Shown one piece after another: positions 2,433 to 62,236 of a stretch of 64,000 nucleotides of DNA. Each line of letters opens with the position of its first letter. Within the stretch, counting starts at the first letter, position 1. The DNA lies in NCBI GenBank assembly GCA_951406725.2, contig OX597819.1:65844001-65908000 (forward strand). The letters run 5' to 3'. The position numbers and the translations under genes were made by a program. This DNA is from Octopus vulgaris (lineage: Eukaryota). The notes under the pieces are model-generated. The model was given only the letters and a program-made list of their open reading frames with translations, did not search any database and was not told the DNA's origin.

Positions 2433-3554
2433 GATAAAGCAAAACGTTATCTTTACCCCAGTCCAGCTTCTTACAGTTGTAGCCTATCTTTAATGGTTTT
2501 ATTTCAGATTCAGAAAAGCTTTCTTTTATTTTCCCAGTTGTACTCTTGTTGTCTTTGGTCGTCATATAAATATATAAGCACTTGTGAGCGTGTACCTATT
2601 TTCTTTTCTAACCGTTGTAACTGCTGCATAAAGTACATCGTTTAATCTGGTGATATTGATGTTCGTGTCTGTTTTCATTAAACCTGTGACAGCTAATTTC
2701 GTTTCCATCTTTATTATTCTAATGTTCTTTTTCTTTTATCGATAATTTTATCCTTGAAAGGTACTTACGTCGATTTTTATGAAGGTCTTTATTTTAATCT
2801 TTTAATTATTTTTCCTTTCTAGATTTTCCTGATCATGATCTATCTTTTGAAATGCCAGTTCTCAAATACGATTTTTTCTTAGTCAGTATTCAGTGATTGT
2901 TCGAGAATGTTTTATAGTGTATTCTAATTTATTTACATTAATTGTGTTGCACTAGTTACACATATGTTTAACGGTTACGCCCCAACTCCTGATATTTTTT
3001 TAATTTCAACTCTTTATTTTCTGTTCGTTATTTGCGCTTGTGACATTTATTCATATACGATTCTGCTCAATTTTTATTCAATTTCCTTTGTTATATTTGA
3101 GGATATATTTTACTTAAATAAATGTCCTATTCAAATTAACATTTCCCTTTACATTCGTTCTAAATTCTAAAAATATTTCTTGCACTTCAGCTTTAAAGTA
3201 AGAAATCATTAATGTAGGTCTGAAATGAATTTCTTTAGCGTGTATTCCTTACCAGATTTATTTGTAACGCAATAGAATGAGCTCTGTTCGGGTACAAGCT
3301 TTTCTTCGACAGTTGGTAACAAGTGGTCACCAAATCACAAAATACTAAATACTCTTAATATACTTTTCTTATATGATAAATTGTATAATAACTTTTTAAA
3401 TTCTTAGTTGCGTAATCTTCTAGCCATTTTTCTTTTCCAATTTTAGACATTCGGTGGTTTTTGAGTAATTATTGTTTATATCGGATGGTTTTTTTAGAAG
3501 AGTCAAGCAACTTTCTCTCGTGATAAAAATCTATATATTATTATAATTATTATT

Positions 3555-4091
3555 GAGTGAGAGAGAAGTGCATGTCATCAAACTGACACTGGGGAAAATA
3601 TACGAAGCCCAGTATACCTATCATGACTACACGTCTGATAAGGTTACACAAGGCACATGCTACACAACAATATGTGCGCGACATGGTGATCTCAAATCAA
3701 GATAAACAGTGAATGACATTGCAGGTGGGGCCCGGTTAGAATTTTCTTCTGGTCGAGTAACCCATCCCGCTCAAAACGTCCCTGAATAAGGGTTGTTTAA
3801 GGATGTTGAACGAAATACCCACGTTTCCACTGGTGAATTATTCAAACATCAAAGAATCCCTCTCAACACATGGCTATGATGCTCCCCTACCATTTCTGCT
3901 TGTGATCAGAGATGCACATATCGTCAGCCACTAAGGAACATGCTCAACTTGTTACGGTCAAACAGCTGACAAGCAATTCTGTGGTATTGAGCAGAATACT
4001 TACTGTAGCCCATTTTTTATACGAATACAAAACAATGTACATAATAACACTTCCAATCAGTTAAGATCAGAAGCCACGAGAGCCACTGCCT
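3555..4091 (-). repeat. Repeat family A, near full-length
   Basis: Reverse complement of 8405-8957; (TTA)n on both sides. Confidence 0.9.
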
Positions 4092-4639
4092 ATTATTATT
4101 ATTATTATTATTAGTAGTAGTAGTAGTTTTAGTAGTAGTAGTAGTGTTGGTGGTGAAGAATTATTGTTGATATTATTACCTAAATAAAAAGCATGTTTAT
4201 CATCGGAAGCTCAATAAACACTCCTAGAATATTCAGCGTTTTCATATCAAACAGTTTTAAAATCGTTTGTTCTCACTTTCACAATATATTCATGTCCATA
4301 TTATCTCTCTCCCCTGCCTCTCTCCTCTCCTCTCTCTTTCTTTCCCTGTCTGTGCCACTCATATATATATATATATATATATATAAACCCATTGAAATAT
4401 AGACAAGCTAGACAAAAATGTTGATATATATACATATATACACTTATATATTAAAGATATGCATATTTGTTATTCACATATAAATATGCCATATGCATAC
4501 ACAAAGATGTATCTATATATATTAATATGCATACATGTATATATATATGTGTGTGTCTACTTGCGATTGTATGTGAGCAAGGTTCAGGTTTATATATATA
4601 TAAGATATATATACTTACACACACACACCCATGTAAATA

Positions 4640-8350: not shown

Positions 8351-8402
<52 letters not shown>

Positions 8403-8404
8403 TG

Positions 8405-8957
8405 CCCTGATGCAGTACCAGGCAGTGGCACTCATGGCTTCTGATCTTAACTGATTGGAAGTGTTATCATGTACATTGTGTTGTCTTCGTATAAAAGATG
8501 GGCCACAGCAAATATTCTGCTCAATACCACAGATTTGCTTGTTAGTTGTTTGACCTTAATCAGTTGAGCATGTCCCTTAGTGGCTGACGATATGTGCATC
8601 TCTGATCACGAGCAGAAGTAGTGGTGGAGCATCATAGCCATGTGTTGAGAGGGATTCTTTGGGGTTTGAATAGTTCACCTCTGGAAACATAGATGTTTCG
8701 TTCAACATCCTTAAACAACCCTTATTCAGGGATCTTTTGAGCGGGATGGGCTACTCGAGCAGAAGAAAATTCTAACTGGGCCCCAACTGCAATGTCATGT
8801 GCTGTTTATCTTGATATAAGATCACCATGTCGCGCATATATTGTTGTGTAGCATGCGCCTGGTGTACCCTTATCAGATGTGTAGTCATGATGCGTATACT
8901 GGTCTTCGTATATTTTACCCCAGTGTCACTTTGATGGTATGCACTTCTCTCTCACTC
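8405..8957 (+). repeat. Repeat family A, full-length, embedded in (AAT)n
   Basis: Four homologous copies within 9 kb; (AAT)n at 8352-8400 and 8958-9012. Confidence 0.9.
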
Positions 8958-9016
<59 letters not shown>

Positions 9017-9624
9017 TAACAACAACATCATTATCAGAAGCACAATTTTCATTATATTTAGCTGATTTTATTATTGCTTGTGGTGATGATAGCTTTGTTT
9101 GTTAGTAACCTCAACAATATGCGCTTTTTATAGTTGATATGGTATTCTATAATCCGATGGATTCCGTGCTACGCGGAACGATATTCAGGTGTGGATTGCG
9201 TTAATAGAAAGATAGACCTTTACTACTGATATTTTTCTCAGTTAAGTAAAGAAAACAACAATATTTTAATTCACGAAGCAAAATTGTATTTCTACCTTTC
9301 AATATTTTTAAAATAGCAAGTAACATAGGATACACCCCCATATATTACAGAAATTAAAAAAACAAAATTTATCCAAAAGTATCCAAAAATATAGCACAAA
9401 TAATTGTAACTTTAAAATGCAATACCGGAAATAATGTAATTTTCAGCGGTAAAAATTATCTCACATCAGAAAAAACTTCAAAATTCTAGGGACTAAAATA
9501 ATAGCAATGTGCTTCCGTTGCCATTAATGACGGTATTTTCAGTAAGAGGACACAAAAATACGACTAAATCCAATGTTTCTGTAGTTAAACTTCTATGACG
9601 GAAGCGGAGCAGCAGCAGCAGCAT

Positions 9625-9990: not shown

Positions 9991-10248
9991 CCATATAGCG
10001 TAGTGGTTAAGAGCGCGGGCTACTAATCCCAAGATTCCAAGTTCGATTCCAGGTAGCGACCTGAATAATAATAATAAGAAGAAGAAGAATAACAACAACA
10101 ACATCGAAAAATACCTTAGGTATGAGAACCCTGGTTCGAAATTTCCCCAAGACACCTCAAGAAGGCTGGAGGGTATATCAGCCGAAACGTTGTGTTAACA
10201 ACAAACAAAATGAGGACAAATATCCGTCGAATGTAGATAATGTAAATA
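9991..10248 (+). mobile_element. SINE family E: tRNA-like head + (AAT)n spacer + hammerhead-like 3' module
   Basis: A-box TAGCGTAGTGG, B-box GTTCGATTCC, (AAT/AAG)n, then GACAC-CTCAAGA-A-GGCTG..CAGCC-GAAACGTT-GTGTT; homologs at 24251 and 42275. Confidence 0.85.
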
Positions 10249-10329
10249 AATAACCAAATGTTTAGTAAAGTGCAATAACAGTATTGCAGTATCGACCAGG
10301 CCATCACATACAGCTCTTATACACCGCTG

Positions 10330-10740
10330 GTCACAATCCGGTTCCAATTCTTTCTTGATTCCACCATTCGTTTCCATCTTGACCAAAATTGTTTAGCTAC
10401 AACGTCTTTCCATCGCTGTGAGGTCCTTCTATATGGTCTTTTTTATCTCTTGGATACCACTCAGCAACTGCCAACTGCATAAGCCCATATGTGGTCTTTG
10501 AACCTTGCGATATGTCCGGCCCAAGCGAATTTCTGCTTTCGGTATTCTGCGATCTGATTGCTTACTCTGCTCTTTAATCATATTATATTTTGAGTATGCT
10601 CTCCTAATGATATTCCTAGCATGGATCTCTCCATAGCAACTTTGAATTGTAGCTAATCAATGCCCTCTCCTTTTCTTAGTAGTCTACGTCTCACTTGCAT
10701 ATAAGTGTTGCAATAAAAGTAACGGATTTAACAAGATTTA
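10330..10740 (-). mobile_element. RTE-clade LINE remnant (ORF C-terminus, frameshifted)
   Basis: Minus-strand hand translation gives LYASET*, AMERSMLGISL, KQKFAWAGHIARFKD, EWYPRDKK, QRWKD, typical of RTE RT C-termini. Confidence 0.85.
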
Positions 10741-11234
10741 ACAAATACGTATTGGAGTCAATTTATTCGATGAAAGCCTTTAAGGCAGTATACCAGCATC
10801 GCCATAGACCAATAACTGGAACAAATAAAAGTTAACAAAGAAGCGTGACAAAATCTCGCAAAGTATTGAAGGTCTCAAAGCTGAGACAGAGAGTATCCTT
10901 GACTTCTGCACGAGAGCAAATCACTCTTAAAAGAACCATATACCGCATGTGATAGAGCAGGTTATGTTAAGTGACTATATAATATGACGTAGCTTATGGA
11001 TTCCTATCTTATCCAAGAAAGACCACAGCTTATCCAAGAAAGCACATATCTGTAGACATAGCAGATATGAGACTTTGATGCACAGGATGTTACTCCAGTA
11101 TTATGAAATGTAAGCAGAAAAGGGTTGGTATAAACATGCAATAGAAGGAGTTTCAGAAAATGAGAATACGGAAATGCGTTTGTAGATGCCAATCGAGATA
11201 CACAGAGAGATGAAGTCTATTACGTTAGATAATC

Positions 11235-11621
11235 TTTTCTACTATAGGCACAAGGCCCGAAATTTGGGGGCAAGTGAGGCAGTCGATTAGATCGACCCCA
11301 GTACGCAACTGGTACTTTATCGATCCCGAAAGGATGAAAGGCAAAGTCGGCCTCGAAGGGAATTGAACTCAGCACGTAACGGCAGACGAAATACCTATTT
11401 CTTTACTACCCACAAGGGGCTACACACAGAGGACAAACAAGGACAGACAATCGGATTAAGTCGATTATATCGATCCCAGTGCGTAACTGGTACTTAATTT
11501 ATCGATCCCGAAAGGATGAAAGACAAAGTCGACCTCGGCGGAATTTGAATTCACAACGTAACGGCAGAAATACCGCTAAGCATTTCGTCCGGCGTGCTAA
11601 CGATTTTGCCAGCTTGCTGCC
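11235..11621 (-). mobile_element. SINE family C (tRNA head, Nin/Deu-like domain), two tandem units with different tails
   Basis: Minus strand GGCAGCAAGCTGGCAAAATCGTTAGC head, TTCAAATTCCGCCGAGGTCGACTTTG..TTTCATCCTTTCGGGATCGATAAA core present twice. Confidence 0.9.
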
Positions 11622-12266
11622 TTCTGTCTGGACAGATATTGTTATCAAAAACACACCAACAAAAGAAATGCCTTCTAATTGCTGCAGCACTCTCAATTGA
11701 TAACTTGCCAGTCTGAGGAATTGAAACTTTTTACCAAACTTGAAAAATGTAGGAGTATATGAGATGTTCAAACAAGAAGTGCCTACAAAAACTTATAAAA
11801 AATACATAACCAAATTGCCAAGGATCTAAAAATATGCACACAATTCAGAATATTGTAATATATGCCACTGCACATACATTGTATAGGGTTATATGTATAT
11901 ATGCACGTATGAATGACTGACTGAATGAAAGAATGGGTGTATGAGTGAATGACTATATGTATGTAGGTAGGTAGATATCTTGTCTGGAGGAGGTAGTTTC
12001 CCTTACACCACAAAAATGCTATTGGAATCTGCTTAGCTGTTACAGGGCGGATACTCTACTCTTTCGATTCACCAAATATTTCCTGAACTAGTGTGCGTGG
12101 GCCTCAGGCACATAAATGATTGAATAGTAATTACAAGAAACAACAAGGAATTTCTAATAAATACATATAAATGCGAAACTTCGTGCATTCGAAACCACAC
12201 ACATATGGGTGTGCATGCATGCAGGATATGCATGATTACATGAACGCATATATGTGTATCATCATA

Positions 12267-12337
<71 letters not shown>

Positions 12338-12549
12338 TGTGTATAAGTATATAGGTGTGCGTGTAAGTATACATATGTATTGGTATATATGCAAGTATTT
12401 AAATCTGTCTCTATATGAATTAATGTAGGTATATTTATGAGTATACATATTAATAAAGAGAGATAAATTGATAGATAGATAAATAGATAGATGTGTATAT
12501 ATATGGATTTATAAACACACACGGGTGTACACATACACACACGCAAATG

Positions 12550-17459: not shown

Positions 17460-17665
17460 CCGGAGTAAACACATAAATGTGAAACAAGGTGGAAAAAAAG
17501 TACTCAAATACCAGTAGTAGAGTAATATGCTTTATTTAAAGCAGCAGAAAATTCAACAAAACCTGTTACTCTGAGTTTCCCGTTGCCGTTCATCGGACAG
17601 TTTTGAACGGCAACGGGAAACTCAGAGTAACAGGTTTTGTTGAATTTTCTGCTGCTTTAAATAAA

Positions 17666-17666
<1 letters not shown>
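17460..17666 (-). mobile_element. Penelope-like terminal-repeat remnant with a perfect 63-bp foldback, between (TA)n tracts
   Basis: 17530-17592 is the exact reverse complement of 17604-17666 (11-nt loop); hammerhead-like motif on minus strand at 17563-17600. Confidence 0.65.
17563..17600 (-). ncRNA. Variant minimal type I hammerhead motif
   Basis: CTGT-CCGATGA-ACG GCAA CGG-GAAA-CTC A GAG-TA-ACAG; U4C core change and weak stem II. Confidence 0.5.
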
Positions 17667-17756
<90 letters not shown>

Positions 17757-18731
17757 AGACGGAGAAATAGATAACGAAAGAAATTAAGAAAGAAGATAAA
17801 ACAAACGATTTGGAATGAAAACAAAGTTTAAAACGAGGGAAAAAAACATTATGGAAAGAATTAAAGGAGTGAAAGAAGGACTGAAGGAAAGGGAAAGTAA
17901 TAGAAAGATGAAGAATCAGAAAAAGGAAAAGCAAACGATTTTTTTCTTTTTTTTTAATAGAAGAAAGAGCACAGGAGTGAACGAACAAATAAGAATGGAA
18001 AGAATATAGTAAAGAAAGTGAGAAGAAAGAAACGAAAAAAATAAAAATCGTTAAAAAATACGACTAAAAATATATAAATAAAGGAAATAGTAAGAAAAGA
18101 ATGAGATCGTAAAAGAAGAAATAGACAAGAAATGTTGAATTTGAAGATATTGTGAAAGGAAATTGCAGCATTTAACAAAAAGAAATTTTTAAGAATGTAA
18201 AGTAATTAGGAATAATGAAAAGTCTAATTCCTCTGCAGAACCATCAGCTTCACCATCCTACCACTACTACTTGAAAAAATTACTAAAATTTACTAAAGAA
18301 ATAAAGAAGTAATTTGAATTACAAAATAAGAGTAAGCCTTGAATGTTATTAACTCAAAAGATAGATAGGTAAGATGGCAAAGAAGTTCTAGTTTTCCATA
18401 CGTCAACTAAATTTATCTTTGTACATTTACTATGTGGTTCTTTCGTGACTTAGTTCGCGAAGTACAGCGAAAAACTATGCTACGTTGACGAAACTAAAAC
18501 ACTACTGAAACTCGTATGAATGTCGTCCGCCATATAAGTGGCAATCATTTTAGACATTCATATTTAAACACGCATGCACACATACACACATACATATATA
18601 CTGCACCAATAGATACTGGAGATAGCAGTCAATAACATACGACGCTATTGTATAGATTCACTGTATATATATACTGGCAAAAATCGTTAAAGTAAGAATA
18701 TTTAATAAATGTACAACCCAGATGTAAATAA

Positions 18732-18803
18732 TCTAGGACCTAGATTTCGAACTTGCTAAATTACGTTTGTTAACGTAAATTTGATTGGTTCTCATCAGCT
18801 AGA
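18732..18803 (-). ncRNA. Type I hammerhead ribozyme, canonical core
   Basis: TCTAG-CTGATGA-GAAC[..AAATTTACGTT/AACGTAATTT..]GTTC-GAAA-TCTAGG-TC-CTAGA: stems I and II pair, GUC cleavage triplet, near-palindromic stem III. Confidence 0.85.
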
Positions 18804-18966
18804 ATCACCTATAGAAAATTTCAAACGTCACTACATCAATGTCGGTATTACTCGACCGAACGCCTAGCCGTTAACAGACCGAGACAGGGAAAATGTTTCC
18901 AAAGAAAAAATTATTCAATAGTGCAATGCAGTAGTATTGCTTCCCAGAAGAACAAAGCACCATCAG

Positions 18967-19081
18967 GTTAGAGTATAAATATAGGATAGTGGTACAACAA
19001 TGCACCGATTTTTACTCTGTGTCTGTGTGTGTTTGTGTACAGGAAAATAAGTTTTTTTTCTCGCGAGTAGAATTATAAAGA
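18967..19081 (+). repeat. ~115-bp direct repeat, copy 1
   Basis: GTTAGAGTATAAATATAGGATAGTGGTAC...GAGTAGAATTATAAAGA recurs at 20255-20369. Confidence 0.85.
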
Positions 19082-19548
19082 GGAGAAAAATGCTGTAAAC
19101 GCAACTATTGAAAATTTGCTAAATGAAAATTTTTACTCAAAACATTGTAGACACAACTGAAGCTCTTTGGAAGTATATATCTAATTTTGTAAAGGGTGTC
19201 ATTGACCCCTTAGACATCGTACAGACAAGTAACAGGTCACAGACTAAGAGTTGCATCCCGAAAATGTAGAACGGGAATTTGACCTAGCAAGAGGTTATGC
19301 TACTATTTTTAGTTAGAATGTCGTCCTGAGATTTGATAACAAGAAATCTTCTCAAATCTGAAAATCTTTCCCTAGATTTATGCAGAATACAGGAGATTCA
19401 TTCGAATCCTGTTTATTATCCTATGATATTGTAAAACCAATTATCTTATATCGCTTATTTCTCTTCCTGTTCAGTTATAGCTAGGTTTCTTGTTTCAATA
19501 GCTTTAATAGTTTGCTAAGTGTTTATGAGGGATTCCCATAATATCCTA

Positions 19549-19743
19549 GGCTCAGGCCTGGCTGTGTGGTAAGAAGTTTGCTACCCAACCATATGTTTCC
19601 TGGTTCAGGTCCACTGCGTGGCGCCTTAGCCAAGTGTTTTCTACTATAGCCTCGGGCTGACCAAAGCCTTGTGAGGGGATTTGGTAGATAGAAGCTAAAT
19701 GCCCGTCATATATACATATACATACATATATATATACATACAC

Positions 19744-19813
<70 letters not shown>

Positions 19814-20015
19814 TAGTGTACATTTAAACACAAAAGAGGTGAGTCTTAACAGGTCACCTTACATACTAGAAGGAACAGTCAAAATGTGCAAACCACAGTT
19901 AAGAGCAATTTCGAAGTGAATGACAAATGAAAACATTTACCATGTTTTACAGCCGAGCCTTAGGTTTCGTACTTTCATTGGCAAATAAAAATAATTTGCA
20001 AGCCGAAGTTCTCAT

Positions 20016-20071
<56 letters not shown>

Positions 20072-20230
20072 ATATATATATGTATATGTGTGTGTGAGTG
20101 TGTGTGTGTGTGTTTGTGTTTGTCCCCCACCATCGGTTGACAACCGATGTTGGTGTGTTTAAATCCCCGTAACTTAACGGTTCTACAAAAGAGTCGCAGT
20201 GAAACGACTGAAAGAAGTACAAGAATAAAA
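19549..20230 (+). mobile_element. SINE family B interrupted in its (TA)n by a ~210-bp insert (19811-20018)
   Basis: Head 19549-19710, (TA)n, unrelated insert, (TA)n/(TG)n, then family B 3' half TTTGTCCCCCACCATCGGTTGACAACCGATG. Confidence 0.85.
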
Positions 20231-20254
20231 GAGTTATTCTCTTTAGCATCCTTT

Positions 20255-20369
20255 GTTAGAGTATAAATATAGGATAGTGGTACGTCAATGCACTAATATT
20301 TACTCTATGTGTGTGTGTGTGTGTGTGCAGGAAAATAAGCTTTTTTCTCTCGAGTAGAATTATAAAGAT
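20255..20369 (+). repeat. ~115-bp direct repeat, copy 2
   Basis: Matches 18967-19081. Confidence 0.85.
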
Positions 20370-21729
20370 ATACAACTTTTCTGCTAGTTTAAATCCAGAC
20401 TCTTCTAACCTCCCAATGCACTATTTTCGCGACGGAGTAACATATGTTATAATATTCTTTTTGTACCTCCTAACAGCATTTACTTAAGAGATGGATGATA
20501 TATTCGTTTACTTTCCCAAAGCTTCAACATTTGCTCTCTGAGATTTATTCCTCATTTGCATTTATCAAATTCGTCTAAATACCTTGTACCTGGGCGGCTA
20601 TATTTAATGATTCCTTTTTTTTTTTTTTTTGTTTCAAGTTTGCATCTACCAGCTACAAACATCGTTCTTCACTTAAGCTTGTTGCAGGAATTTGCCATGT
20701 CACTTGAAAGCTACTCATACTTCTGCTGCTTCTGTTGAGTTTCCAACTGCTCTAAAGACTATTTTTTTACAAATTATGACTGCCTGTCTTTTTAAATATA
20801 TGAGTGTGCGCGTGTGTGTGTGTGAGAGAGAAAAAGTGACTGTATACATGAGAATAAAAGAGAGTCATAGATTGTACGTATGTGTGCCTGGTGAGTACAT
20901 ATTTATAAATATGTCGATGTTTCCATTAATAATTGTGCTGGAATGATGTTTACTGCTGTTGGGATGATATTTATAATGATGAGAGTAATAGTACTAAATG
21001 ATGCTGCAATATCTCTGCCATCGTCATCTTCATCATCATCATCATCATCATCGTCATCATGGTCTTTATCGTAATTATAGTCATCATTGTCAATAACACA
21101 AAAAGAAGCAAAGTGAATTTTATAGAAACATTTCGAAAAAAGAAAACAAGAGGAAGCGTGCACAGAGGTAATAGAGAACGAATAAATAAATATGATGATG
21201 ATGCGGATATGGCGACGGTGAAGATGTGGGAGGCGAAGGAGGAAGTGAATAAGGAAAGACAAAAGTGTCAGTTAAACTGATAATAATATAACATCAACAA
21301 CAAGAATTACAACAAGAAGCAATGGCAGCAACATCGACTTCAACAACGACAGAAAAAAAAAAACTGTGCAGGAACAGCATGAGCAAAACTAAATTAAGGA
21401 ACATTAAAAAACAAATTAAGGAATTCAAAAGTTGCATGAAGAAAAGTTGCCAGGTGCATTTGTACAATGCAAGGATCACGTGGTTGCATTTTGCTGAAAC
21501 AAATGGAAACGAAGGAGATTGGATATATAAGGAGGAACAGATGTGCCACCAGATACACACGCTCACACACACACACACACACACATACAAACACAAACAC
21601 ACACACACACACCCACACACATATATATATACATACACAAACAAAGGCATATACAAACTCACAAACATATATATCCACATGTCTGGGTGCGCTTTTTTGT
21701 GTATATGCCCATAGATACACAAATTACAA

Positions 21730-34589: not shown

Positions 34590-34637
<48 letters not shown>

Positions 34638-34670
34638 TGAGAAAGTTGGTGTGTGAAAGCACGTGGTTGA

Positions 34671-35136
34671 ATATATAGAAAATAGTAAAAAGTGAAAAAA
34701 CTACAGAAGGCTTGTTTTAAAAGGTTAAAAAATATATTTGAGTCATTATGTCAGAAGAATGTTATAAAATTTTTCCATACAGTGACATAGTTTTTGAAGA
34801 AATTACCGGTTTCTTGTTAACTTTTCAAATTTCTCAAAACATCGTGTTATGTCTTCGTTATGAAGTGTAAAAAAGAGTTCCAGGTAGGGGAGGTAATAAG
34901 TGATTTCTTCCGGTGTAAGGGAGATAATCGCTTTATATTTCTTGCCTCTTTTATTTAATGGGGCGAGGACATAACACGATGTTTTGAGAAATTTGAAAAG
35001 TTAACACGAAACCGGTAATTTCTTCAAAAACTATGTCACTGTATGAAAAAATTTTATAACATTCTTCTGACATAATAACTCAAATATATTTTTTAACCTT
35101 TTAAAACAAGGCTTCTGTAGTTTTTTCACTTTTTAC

Positions 35137-35150
<14 letters not shown>
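34671..35150. repeat. Foldback with ~185-bp near-identical inverted arms inside (TA)n
   Basis: 34671-34857 is the reverse complement of 34964-35150 with few mismatches; ~105-bp spacer. Confidence 0.92.
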
Positions 35151-35194
<44 letters not shown>

Positions 35195-42959: not shown

Positions 42960-43480
42960 TGAGTCAGTGTGTGTGGATAGATAGATAGATCGAGAGAAGA
43001 GATAGATAGATAGATTGAAACATACATACATACATACATACATACATACAGGCATACATACATACAGGCATACATACATACATACATACATACATACATA
43101 CATACATACATACATAGGTAGAGAGACAGCGACAGAGACAGCCAGATAGACAGACAGACAGATAGATAGATAAATAGGTAGCGACAGAAGCAGTATTAAT
43201 ACTGAAAGTAATATTTTCCACCACCTAAATGTGGATGTTATATTAGAATACAGAATACTGCGATACTTGCCAAGGGAGAACCTCTTACACCGACTTATGA
43301 TGCATATAAGCACTCGTGTTTATATCGCTAGCGGAAGATATTCCTCCGCCACTGCTGCCCCTACCACCCCTACCACCAGGTCACGTAATTTTGGCCTTCA
43401 TCAGCTATGACATAGGTGTATGCATGCTGTATATATATATATATATATACGCGAGAATGAAGCAACAAGAATGGATAGGT

Positions 43481-43566
43481 TTTTAGTACAATCGTTTCAT
43501 ACAAGGACAGGTTTTATTAAAAGTTGCAAAAATTACAGCATATAAACTCGTACTCATCAGCTAAAA
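43481..43566 (-). ncRNA. Type I hammerhead ribozyme (inverted copy, 5-nt deletion in stem II)
   Basis: TTTTAG-CTGATGA-GTAC...GTAT-GAAAC-GATT-GTA-CTAAAA on minus strand. Confidence 0.75.
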
Positions 43567-44558
43567 TACATGTGAGTTCTCTAGACATCCTAGTGGTTGA
43601 GGCTATACTCATGAAGTAATGTAGATAATTAAGTAACATAAACAGATTTCAAAAGTTCATTAAAGTTCTTTAAAGATGATGTACAGTCTTATCACAGAAT
43701 TTTAAAAAAAGTCTTAATAGCATCACAGAGAAGGTGACCCAATCCATAGTGCACATATGAATTTCCAGAGATATGATGAGGGATTACATACTCACAGAAG
43801 ACAAATTTATCCATTGTTAATTACAACGAGGTGGGTTTCAATTCCTGCTTATTAGCATTACAGAGAGGGTGAATTAATCATTTGTATAGATGCACAATTT
43901 CCAATGGTGTAGGTGTAAATTTCCAAGGAATTTCATATTCACAGGCGATAAATTTATCAATGGTTGAACACAATGAGGTAGGTATCAATTCTTGCTATAT
44001 GATTAGGTATCTGCCACATTAATCACATTACTGCTATTTACAAGAGGCTGTAGCTATTTAACTTTTAAAGGCTGAAGGGCTTACTAGAGCTGTATAGAAT
44101 AGAAAAGGGAAGGGCATAGAAGAAAAGAGAGAAAATAAAGAGAGAAAATAAAAGAGGAGGGAGCAAAAAGGGGGGGAAGGGGGACTCAAAGAGAAGAGAA
44201 AAGGAAAAAGAGAATAAGAAGAAGAAAAAGAAAAAAGAGAAAAGAGAAAGAAATAGGGAAGGAAGGGAAAAAAAGAAAAAGAAGAAAAAAAGAAAAAAGA
44301 AGAAAGAAGAAAGAAAAAGAAAAAAGAGGGTTCTAGTTATACAGAAGAATTAGTAGACGACAAGTCTGGTTTTAATTTACAGGCATCTAGGAATTAGAGG
44401 AGAATATTATTCTTTGACCAGTTAAAACAGCTAATTTATTGCTGTTGAAATCAGCTATGAATTTAAAGAGAATCTAAAGAGATAACACAGTTAGGGGTTT
44501 CAGGGTCAGATGCTAAAATTACCAGAAAATACATTAGGGAAAACTAGGTATAATCTTA

Positions 44559-44649
44559 TTTTAGCTGATGAGTACGGGACGAGTTTATATGCTGTAATTT
44601 TTGCAACTTTTAATAAAACCTGTCCTTGTATGAAACGATTGTACTAAAA
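44559..44649 (+). ncRNA. Type I hammerhead ribozyme, canonical core, long stem II
   Basis: TTTTAG-CTGATGA-GTACGGGAC...GTCCTTGTAT-GAAAC-GATT-GTA-CTAAAA; 6-bp stem I; GUA triplet ending at 44643. Confidence 0.85.
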
Positions 44650-44796
44650 ACCTATCCATTCTTGTTGCTTCATTCTCGCTTATAATCACCCCACATTACT
44701 GTATTGTTAAATCAGTATAGTTTTTTTTGGTGCATCTAAGTTAGGTACCATATTCAAGTAAATTCATTTAAATTAACTTGAATCTTTATTGCTTTT

Positions 44797-51304: not shown

Positions 51305-51714
51305 GTAGTGTATGTTTGAAGAAATAAATATCTAGGTAAGAATTGTAAGGCTAACAACATAAATACTTAATTAAACTCGGGAATACAAATATGTGTACAT
51401 GCGTGGGCGTATTAATACGCATATGCGGATATGTGTGTGTATATATGCATGTGTGTATATATCTCTATGAATACATGTGTGAGTGCGTGTCTGTGTGTGT
51501 GTATAAGTATATATATATATATAATGCGTGTGTATATATGTTTATATATGTACATATGTGTATGTGTATTTGTATGTGTATGTGTACATATACATATAAA
51601 TATGTATATATATATATATATATATATATGGAATTTATTAAAGTATCCTCATTGTTATTATTATTGACGATAGCAATAATAATAAAGTGGCCAGCACCTA
51701 AATGGACAAAATAT

Positions 51715-53067
51715 ACAAATAAATTACGATACTGAAATACCAGCTTGCTAGAAACAGTAGTCAAAAAATGTCTCCCTATTATTAAACAAGCACGGTGAAT
51801 GCAACAAATATAATAAAAAATGTTCTTACCTTGTATAAACCACAAAGCAAGAACAGATATCGTGGTATCAATTGATTTCACCGTTTGAGCGTTAGCACTT
51901 AAGGATCATCATCCAAGCTTACAGTATTCATCTAATTTCCAAATATTCATTTCATTGCACCGTACGCAATTGTTCACATGAATTCCCCTGCGACATAAAA
52001 CGAACAGAAACTGAGTAGGCAAAATTCAAATTTGAAAAAGTACGAGGGCGAGTCAAAAAGTAATGCCATTTTATTTAGGACAAGTATAATTACCAACACA
52101 GGAACATATATCATACATTAAAATGAAGCTGGTCCTCTGTGGATACATCTCTACACCTCAACATAGTCAACGATTCTCTCAATAGCAATGTTCCACCTTC
52201 GAATGAGAACATGTATCCCTACTCCGTAAAATTCTGTTGACTGTTCTTTGAGCCACTTCTTCACTAATTTTCACTTCCGCGTCACAGGAATAATGTTTGC
52301 CTCTCAAACTCTCTTTCATGGGGCCGAAGAGATGATAGTCCAGTGACGAGGAAATGAAAACTGTAGTGAAGAAGTGGATGAAAGAACAGTCAACAGAATT
52401 TTACCGAGCAGGGATAAATGCTCTCATTCGAAGGTGGAACATTGCTATTGAGAGAAACCGTGGCTACGTTGAGAAATAGAGATGTGATCCACAGAGGGCC
52501 AGCTTCATTTTGATGTATGATACATGTTCTTGTACTGGTAATTATATCTATCATAAACAAAATGGCATTACGTTTTGACTCAACCTCGTATTATTGCCAT
52601 TATTAAGAATAACAATAATAATAAAGTAGCCAGCAGGTTTAACTTAAATTGGCAAAATATACAAATAAATTAAGGAACTGAAATAATAGCTGACTATTGT
52701 ATTATTAATGTTATTGTTAATAATGGTAATAATACTTTATTAAAATTAAAATTTTATTTTCTCTTCGTTTTTGAATGTCGCAGGGACATTCAAGGGAACA
52801 AACGCGCACGGTGTAAAGAAATGAATATTTTGAAAAATAGACGAATAGGGTAAGCTTGGATATCGATCCTTAAGTGCTAACGCACAAAAGGTGTAATTAA
52901 CTGATACCGAGTTATCTGTTCTTGTTTTCTGGTTAATACAAGGTAAGACCTCTTTTTATTGTATTTGTTACATTCACAGTGCGTGTTTCTTAATAGTGAG
53001 AAATTTATGACTTTGGAGTGTTGACTCCTATTTCTAGCAAGCTCGTGTTTCGGTACCCTAATTTATT

Positions 53068-53070
<3 letters not shown>
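51715..53070. repeat. Old diverged foldback (~350-bp arms) hosting a mariner MITE
   Basis: GCTTGCTAGAAA/TTTCTAGCAAGC, GCGTTAGCACTTAAGGATC/GATCCTTAAGTGCTAACGC and CCTGCGACAT/ATGTCGCAGG are inverted pairs in nested order. Confidence 0.85.
52043..52588. mobile_element. Palindromic mariner-derived MITE
   Basis: TA|CGAGGGCGAGTCAAAAAGTAATGCCATTTT ... AAAATGGCATTACGTTTTGACTCAACCTCG|TA; ~245-bp inverted arms; right arm reads SDEEMKTVVKKWMKEQSTEFYRAGINALIRRWNIAIERNRGYVEK*, a mariner transposase C-terminus. Confidence 0.93.
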
Positions 53071-57889: not shown

Positions 57890-57960
<71 letters not shown>

Positions 57961-59047
57961 TGTTTCTTTATTAGCCACACAGGGCTGCACACAGATAGAA
58001 CAAATTACAAGGTAGAGCTTTTCTTTTGAAGGTTTAAAAAAAAAAAAAAAAAAAAGGAATGGGGAGTTTCGATCAAAAGGGATCGTAAAAGGAGAGAAAG
58101 AGGACAAAAAATAGGGGGGTTAAAAAAAAGGGGGAGAGGAAAAAAAATTGATCAATAGGGATCGTTATCACAGAAATGTCAAAATGAAGTGTAAGGGGGA
58201 GGACAGGTGAGGTTTACCCGTGGAAAGAAAAGCCTACGGAAAAGACCACGGTAACCTCGGTCAATGAAGTCACATTTTATATTTCTTTTTTTTTTTTTTT
58301 TTTGCAAATAAGCAACTCTCTGTTTTCGATTTCTGGGTTCATAGGACTATGCTCAAGGTGGCTTCGTCATTCATACGTGCCATTCTTGCTACATTCGCCC
58401 ATCTTTTTTTAAAACATTCGCTAGACAAAACTTGCCTCTCTACTCTCACTTTCCTTTTCAAGTGGTACTTGAAGAAGTTGATGAGAGATTGACCAGAGAG
58501 GAAAGTGTTTGTCTCCAATCCTTTCAGACGCGTCCACCAGATACATTCTTTGGCCATAGCCACAAGGATGATGAAAATAGCTCTTCCTTCCCGTTTGAAG
58601 GAAGGAGGCGTGACAATATTGACGATAGACTCAGCTGATAAACCGACTCGTCCCACACGTGACAGCAGTTGTTCGACATAAGCCCACAGGTCGGAAATTG
58701 TTGGACACTGAACGAGTGCGTGCAGAACGGTTTCGTCGCTCTGACCGCATCTCGGGCAGGTCGGCCCCGTGTTTCTCGAGCCGTGTCTGTAGAGCTTATC
58801 CCGAACGGGTAGCGCTTCTCGGTAGCACTGCCAGGCCAGGGATCTCTGGAAGTTGTCCATGGGCCCTGGCCCGAAAGTCGTCCTGAACAGGCGGGTCAGG
58901 TACTCCTCGTCGACGTCCAGGTTCGCCCCGAGCTCGTCGTCGTACCTCCCCTCCACTAAACCCCTATAGAATGCTTTGGTTGTGTTGAAGTCACTTAAGG
59001 TCGACCCAGGACGGCAGAGTTGCTTGAGAGCAACGCGACACTCGCGG

Positions 59048-61443: not shown

Positions 61444-61490
<47 letters not shown>

Positions 61491-61518
61491 CAGACAGACA
61501 GACAGATGGATAAATAAC

Positions 61519-61753
61519 TTTCTTCATTGGCCACACAGGGCTTAATACAGAGGGGACAAATACAAATGTAGAGCTTTTCTTTTCGAAGATGGAAAAAGAA
61601 AAAGGAACAAAAAAAGAAACTAATGTAAAATTCCGATCAAAAGGGATCGTGTATCACACAAACAAAGATTAGGTTCATCCGTGGAAGAAAAGCCTACAGA
61701 AAAGACCACGGTAACCTCAGTCAGGGAGGAAATAAACACGAGAGCAAAGTGCT

Positions 61754-61830
<77 letters not shown>

Positions 61831-62236
61831 ACGATTTACAAGATCGTGCTCAAAGTGGTTTCGTCACTCGCACGCACCAGCTTTGCTACATTCACCCACC
61901 TTTTTTTGGAACTTTCGCGAGACAAAGCCTGCCTTTCCATTCTCACCTTCCTTTTACAGTGGTACTTGAAAAAGTTGATGAGCGATTGGCCAGAGAGGTA
62001 AGTGTTTCTCTCTTATCCTTTCGCTCGGGTCCACCACACACGTCTTTCACCATGGCCACCAGTACGATGAATACTGCCTTGCCTTCCCGGTTGAGGGAAG
62101 GGGGCGGAGCAATTTTCCGGATAGACTCGGCCGACAGGCGAACTCGTCCTGCACGTGACAGCAGCCGTTCGGCATAAGCCCACAGGTCTGTAATGGTTGG
62201 ACACTGCACGAATGCGTGCAGAACGGTTTCGTCGCT
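61519..62236 (-). mobile_element. Second Tx1/L1-clade LINE fragment of the same family
   Basis: SDETVLHAFVQCPTITDLWAYAERLLSRAGRVRLSAESI; shared UTR blocks GAAAAGACCACGGTAACCTC and GCCACACAGGGCT; (CT)n at 61753-61826. Confidence 0.92.

Follow-up and report, generated by a model that had tools for sequence, protein, structure and literature searches.

The hammerhead ribozyme at 18732-18803 on the minus strand of the window (the whole 64,000-nucleotide stretch of Octopus vulgaris DNA analysed, from contig OX597819.1) is part of one worn copy of an abundant non-coding repeat of about 400-450 nt. The copy extends over 18602-19016 on the minus strand (about 415 nt, 35% G+C), its left limit being an estimate as the aligned stretch began at 18605. 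The hammerhead sequence itself is confirmed as genuine from its complete core and by comparison with shuffled windows, and the repeat is read here, with moderate confidence, as a dispersed monomer of an octopod element of non-LTR-retrozyme-like, Penelope-dependent type.

The hammerhead motif and its surroundings

Every conserved hammerhead core base is present on the minus strand from 18803 to 18732 in the type I order, with the core placed around three helices and open at helix I. In hammerhead numbering C3-A9 occupy 18798-18792, G10.1 and C11.1 are 18791 and 18749, G12-A15.1 occupy 18748-18745, U16.1 is 18738 and C17 is 18737, with the cut predicted between 18737 and 18736. The numbering together with a descriptor scan bears out the canonical core claimed in an earlier note on this DNA, and the cut position predicted there is the same. 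Its account of the stems also holds, with five contiguous pairs in stem I, a G-C-closed stem II (18749-18791) in which a 4-bp helix is followed by an internal loop and a distal 7-bp hairpin, and a short near-palindromic stem III that is an 8-nt self-complementary stretch (18738-18745) with two G-U pairs. Stem I is extended further outward (18723-18815) when the fold of the window copy is combined with the majority letters of the family paired by hand. In the family majority this extension consists of an internal loop, two more pairs, a bulge and three more pairs, and it is weaker in the window copy.

The descriptor scan finds three complete motifs in the window (18732-18803, 43481-43566 and 44559-44649), and the same descriptor gives no motif in any of 200 locally dinucleotide-shuffled windows, by which a chance origin is rejected. 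The motif had been called unrelated in sequence to the other hammerheads present, and only about 18 nt around the core match the two others (E 0.2-0.9). Comparison with Rfam, proposed earlier as a check, succeeds in part: the best match is Hammerhead_HH9 with 24.9 bits and an E value of 0.0015 that refers to a search of the 1.3-kb neighborhood, and this does not reach the gathering score of 52, so that membership of HH9 (RF02275) is rejected. No hammerhead stands among 150 of the 395 rows of an Rfam scan of the whole window. A second hammerhead considered on the plus strand at about 18855-18885 was rejected by eye, being without a matching 5′ core or stem I. Pattern scans gave no viral contig, three prokaryote genome matches judged to be chance and, in metagenome contigs, 0 loci and then one unrelated locus (L004), where a hammerhead-like motif at 1490-1567 on the minus strand has the stem III letters of the window copy and an interrupted stem I.

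The window is microsatellite-rich, with about 35% G+C, and holds other repeats. The two other complete motifs lie in an inverted repeat pair (43446-43568 and 44557-44684, 95% identical), each with a hammerhead-like motif of long helix II. The left repeat ends at a long (TA)n, and the pair looks like a Penelope-type inverted end, with no Rfam match at E 1 or below and no meaningful Pfam match between the repeats. A near-perfect palindrome at 17525-17671, ending in (TA)23(AG)20, contains the 3′ half of a hammerhead whose stems III and I resemble by eye those of Hydra-2_aMil in the consulted part of PMC8557442. Long palindromes also occur at 34592-35193 and 52041-52590. Translations in 51650-53070 resemble the C terminus of a mariner-type transposase and have no Pfam match. 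Three copies of a 600-bp repeat with 83-88% identity (1-789, 3536-4143 and 8351-9019), one of them inverted, end in (AAT)n, and the abundant SINE-like repeats have an octopus-like appearance. The 3′ end of a LINE ORF with a zf-RVT domain is placed at 58342-59004 on the minus strand, with related pieces at 57890-58740 and 61446-62236; a relative of it, 59% identical across 75% of the query, occurs in Argonauta hians, and the Octopus bimaculoides match covers only 17%.

Extent, copy number and ends of the repeat

The ribozyme is solitary, as it had been described, only within the window; in each of three DNA-type runs 204-417 contigs match. The stretch or part of it is contained in 11 listed runs (6 studies, 4 organism labels), and contigs were aligned on 18605-19440 at 80% likeness in 4 of 24 listed runs, giving 292 contigs in X4, 417 in X7, 16 in X10 and 204 in X11. 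Summed depth over 18717-18800, which is not equal to copy number, is 1180-1978 in X4 against a flank baseline of 5.64 and 10079-12450 in X7 against 41.3, about 200-350 times the baseline in these two runs that have a single-copy baseline; the ribozyme depth in X11 is 864-1043 in a run without one. Where the ribozyme is best covered, the majority letter is found in 31-65 distinct contigs of each DNA-type run. The alignments gave 136 letter rows, 23 joints, 300 loose ends and 987 pieces, of which 40, 15, 23 and 32, respectively, were examined. They report no pile-up of ends, a feature that contigs would not reveal.

High depth begins at about 18614-18633, lasts to 19006 and has given way to the baseline from 19025 on, and in X11 most bins of 19025-19440 are without cover. 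Skip joints connect a left part (18614-18681), the ribozyme and a right part reaching 19006, and the loose ends indicate about 35-45 other letters in the family near 18681-18694 that are different or absent in the window copy. The unit, with its length taken from depth and ends, falls in the range of about 150-450 nt known for non-LTR retrozymes and resembles them in being multi-copy, having less than 50% G+C and carrying a canonical type I hammerhead. The earlier note had placed the ribozyme near a (TA)n end; this run is a mere five TA units (18664-18673) 59 nt away, and because joints and family depth occur on both sides of it, with depth continuing to at least 18614, it is internal to the family. 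The copy is instead adjoined by a mixed (CA)n/(TA)n microsatellite (18568-18601) at its 3′ end in the minus-strand sense and by a degenerate (TG)n microsatellite (19017-19039) at its 5′ end. These are the places where a retrozyme would have a target-site duplication of more than 4 bp, and no empty site occurs among the contigs aligned. A local duplicate of 18967-19081 lies at 20255-20368 on the plus strand (89.6% identity); this 114-bp duplication holds the 5′ tip of the repeat without the ribozyme and also takes in a (TG)n.

The ends of the copy are marked by a 16-nt direct repeat in which 18602-18617 and 19001-19016 on the plus strand are identical at 12 of 16 positions. Taken alone this repeat is weak (E 11, with 9 other places in the window matching at 4 mismatches), but its motif recurs in loose ends of the family, again at the left end. 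Go-back joints occur among the 15 of 23 joints from 18848 to 18614 (X4) and from 18848 to 18694 (X7), in one contig each with the intervening sequence unseen. The tip at 18974-19006 stands beside a microsatellite in six contigs of X4 and one of X10, with loose ends at 18973-18974, an arrangement that an overrun tail would give; joint rows at the 19008-19043 repeat were left out of the joint table. No direct tandem array is seen, the window copy being single and no end-to-start joint occurring among the same 15 joints. Terminal repeat, go-back joints and tips suggest, at the level of sequence, inserts slightly longer than one unit, made on a template that was tandem or circular. The redundancy and go-back signals could alternatively stem from degenerate sub-repeats within the element, and degenerate 45-80-nt sub-repeat copies are seen at about 18673-18717, 18922-18998 and 20414. 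A 281-nt period (18686-18717 compared with 18967-18998; 10 of 500 shuffles) was set aside as a degenerate sub-repeat, since it does not run through the ribozyme.

By Pfam the repeat has no protein-coding capacity. Searches of six read-through frames of 17760-19709, of three minus frames of 19810-21050 and of a 65-aa plus-strand segment in the repeat are blank, and no match to an ORF with a telomerase-like RT and GIY-YIG endonuclease adjoins the repeat in the flanking frames. Among 148 of the 568 stop-to-stop segments of the window, chosen among the longer segments after exclusion of those dominated by microsatellites, one match is above the cut-off, the zf-RVT domain 40 kb away. The tie to a Penelope-type mobile element drawn earlier finds general support for this canonical type I hammerhead, and no parent Penelope ORF lies beside the copy in the frames searched.

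Pairing in the window copy and in the family

Differences occur between the window copy and the family. Among 40 of 136 letter rows, nine majority differences fall in 18726-18814, of which, paired by hand, seven improve a pair (four in stem I, two in stem II and one in stem III), two lie in loops (18755 and 18812) and none breaks a pair. The family letter at 18744 (86-100% of depth) changes a stem III U-G to C-G and makes the palindrome perfect, stem II gains pairs from those at 18787 and 18757, and those at 18804, 18726, 18727 and 18814 add or strengthen pairs of the extended stem I. A small hairpin-like stretch upstream of the ribozyme (18851-18884) also seems by eye to be better paired in the majority letters. 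The majority letters thus show, as far as sequence can, a decayed window copy in a family that keeps a better-paired ribozyme. Cephalopods are known for heavy RNA editing, and editing as the source of the differences was rejected as they are present in DNA-type runs with transitions and transversions mixed.

Some family copies vary within the core. U4 is C at 17-26% of depth in DNA-type runs, a change known to be tolerated by hammerheads, and G5 is A at 2-4% of depth. At G10.1 (18791) each of the four runs has A for 34-42% of depth (6, 9, 1 and 6 contigs), and no compensating change is found among the 40 of 136 letter rows; these copies may represent a subfamily in which helix II is shifted or a dead lineage that was amplified. 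Loose ends that come from different runs (X10 and X11) imply a subfamily with an apparent double compensatory change, both partners of two stem I pairs being altered. X10, guessed to be RNA with DNA carry-over possible, has 16 contigs, one identical to 18777-18950 at a depth of 3.5 and several paralogues with some core changes (G5 to A in two contigs), and these contigs were given no weight as evidence.

The window copy differs from paralogous contigs by about 15-18% (e.g. 21-27 of 132-148 letters). Organisms B and C have almost identical contigs, probably orthologous to the window copy, with 6/265 and 6/274 differences in the element and 6/454 and 8/454 in the unique flank; B and C have several differences in common and are not independent. 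These counts give no sign of special conservation at the window locus.

Folded alone (72-92 nt), the window copy forms stems I and II with a probability of about 0.9-0.99 (0.5-0.6 for the outermost stem I pair), and stem III does not form in the monomer. The self-complementary stem III is instead the predicted dimer interface, with a duplex of -6.2 kcal/mol. The letter at 18744 in the window copy completes a competing 7-bp hairpin on the minus strand (18730-18746), perfect only in this copy, that would put the cleavage triplet in a 3-nt loop and so can bury the cleavage site. Its predicted probability rises from 0.01 for the ribozyme folded alone to 0.16-0.19 in a 131-nt stretch and about 0.3 in the complete unit, in which the probability of stem I falls to about 0.05, and the best predicted dimer uses the inactive hairpin pairing. 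The models suggest that the window copy would cleave poorly and is a poor representative of its family; they leave aside tertiary contacts and the non-canonical pairs of the core, which makes weak cleavage a prediction only. Folded as a circle, the unit of the window copy has a z of 0.29, with 34 of 60 shuffles as stable; the highly self-paired circular monomer of retrozymes is thus not seen in this decayed copy, and intact copies may differ.

Origin of the repeat and relation to known systems

The main rival is close kin of the retrozyme reading and is a real though clearly lesser possibility. Here the repeat would represent the terminal 3′ part (pseudo-LTR) of a Penelope-like element that is autonomous; most of its copies would be 5′-truncated, and the role of the ribozyme would be to process transcripts of tandem elements. 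According to the consulted part of PMC8557442, Penelope-like elements target (TA)n and have their type I hammerheads some 100-200 nt before the 3′ end, and one such hammerhead is listed for Octopus bimaculoides (Hydra-1_Obim); in the window the motif and the 3′ limit are about 130 nt apart, with a microsatellite adjoining. Other Penelope-like ends occur in the window (17525-17671 and 43446-44684), and partial tandems with 30-40-bp tails would give go-back joints too. However, no coding trace is found within or beside the copy, and family depth stops near 19007-19024 at the window locus. The Hydra-1_Obim motif in PMC8557442 differs in all three stems, and a diagnostic motif is not found in the consensus files drawn on from that source, in which a match split over two lines could be missed. 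Minimal hammerheads of Penelope elements typically have an additional base following A9, according to the part of PMC4209133 consulted, and this base is absent as well.

A hammerhead-bearing repeat of SINE-like or satellite-like type that spreads independently of Penelope, via LINE machinery or DNA-level amplification as for the schistosome hammerhead repeats, is improbable. It would account for the dispersed, high-copy behavior, LINE remnants and SINEs are plentiful in the window, and the mobilizing partner of animal retrozymes is unproven in the sections used of PMC7229834; against this, no poly(A) or LINE-like tail is seen, no tRNA-like head is noticed by eye, and the microsatellite-flanked ends suit Penelope targeting. 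Domestication of the window copy, which would make it a regulatory ribozyme of the host comparable to the HH9 and HH10 motifs in amniote introns, is the least credible explanation. The HH9 match, the intact core and the probable orthologues in organisms B and C are in its favor, whereas the element differences there (6/265 and 6/274 against 6/454 and 8/454 in the flank) mean no extra conservation, the window copy has lost pairs relative to the family, and Pfam gives no host exon in the 148 of 568 segments.

In the preferred reading, a dispersed retrozyme-like monomer, tandem source copies would be transcribed in the minus-strand sense and cut after each C17, with the help of two palindromic stem III segments that pair with each other (as parts of PMC4209133 and PMC6765202 suggest), and intact copies would cut head-to-tail transcripts to unit lengths. 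The unit RNAs may be circularized or ligated and then reverse-transcribed by a Penelope-like RT/endonuclease into microsatellite DNA, a route taken from portions of PMC7229834 and PMC7761336, and the outcome would be slightly-more-than-unit inserts such as the window copy. This insert would then have drifted neutrally, now probably with weak or no cleavage. Counting against the reading are the lack of a directly seen tandem array, the weakness of the terminal repeat by itself, the ordinary stability of the circle of the window copy and the share of A at G10.1. Dispersed monomers are normal for retrozymes, which derive from Penelope pseudo-LTRs, in the passages used of a vertebrate-centered study (bioRxiv 10.64898/2026.07.22.740005). 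The 15-18% divergence of the window copy from its paralogues resembles the Octopus Penelope-like expansion at a divergence of about 0.2 in PMC13282606, whose consulted passages leave ribozymes unmentioned; those of PMC8967140 and PMC10886601 add nothing on ribozymes.

A further conjecture, tentative and rather unlikely as a whole, is that this is an uncatalogued cephalopod retrozyme family with hundreds of copies in several octopods, in which helices I and II are both extended, two internal loops rather than a terminal loop make the tertiary contact, and intact tandem loci still yield self-cleaved circular RNAs of about 430 nt. Literature searched for octopus or cephalopod hammerheads, ribozymes and retrozymes leaves the family undescribed, repeat libraries and several supplements being outside the search, and it may already stand in a catalogue as a repeat without a name. 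Short animal repeats and Penelope-like ends are already known to carry type I hammerheads, with one listed for an Octopus element; the addition here is one particular octopod family, abundant and with a helix II that is unusually long and in two parts. If the retrozyme reading is true, it would extend retrozymes to cephalopods and provide a test case for their proposed Penelope origin. The window copy alone is a poor choice for an assay.

The metazoan non-LTR retrozymes have units of 350-390 bp in mussel, 220-245 bp in coral and 330-350 bp in axolotl (Cervera and de la Pena 2020, PMC7229834), and the part of that paper searched, which does not include its supplement, gives no cephalopod example. 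The octopod repeat shares with them, as described there, the canonical type I motif, a short palindromic helix III, a unit of a few hundred bases, G+C below 50%, the lack of an ORF and many copies, whereas its helix II is long with an internal loop. Unlike most retrozyme circles that of the window copy is not unusually self-paired, and whereas tandem arrays, self-cleavage and circular RNA are hallmarks of retrozymes the present family is known here from DNA and contig sequence. With the Penelope-like pseudo-LTR hammerheads, in the portions consulted of Cervera and de la Pena 2014 (PMC4209133) and Craig et al. 2021 (PMC8557442), it shares the type I order, a palindromic helix III, a position near the estimated 3′ end at a microsatellite and the host group, (TA)n-targeting Octopus families being listed in the latter. 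In contrast with those hammerheads it has no nucleotide between A9 and G10.1, an extended helix I and no linked ORF, and its sequence differs from that of Hydra-1_Obim of Octopus bimaculoides. The core and interrupted helix I align with Rfam Hammerhead_HH9 (RF02275, clan CL00010), from which the octopod motif is set apart by a 32-nt insertion in helix II and by being multi-copy and decayed where HH9 is single-copy and ultraconserved.
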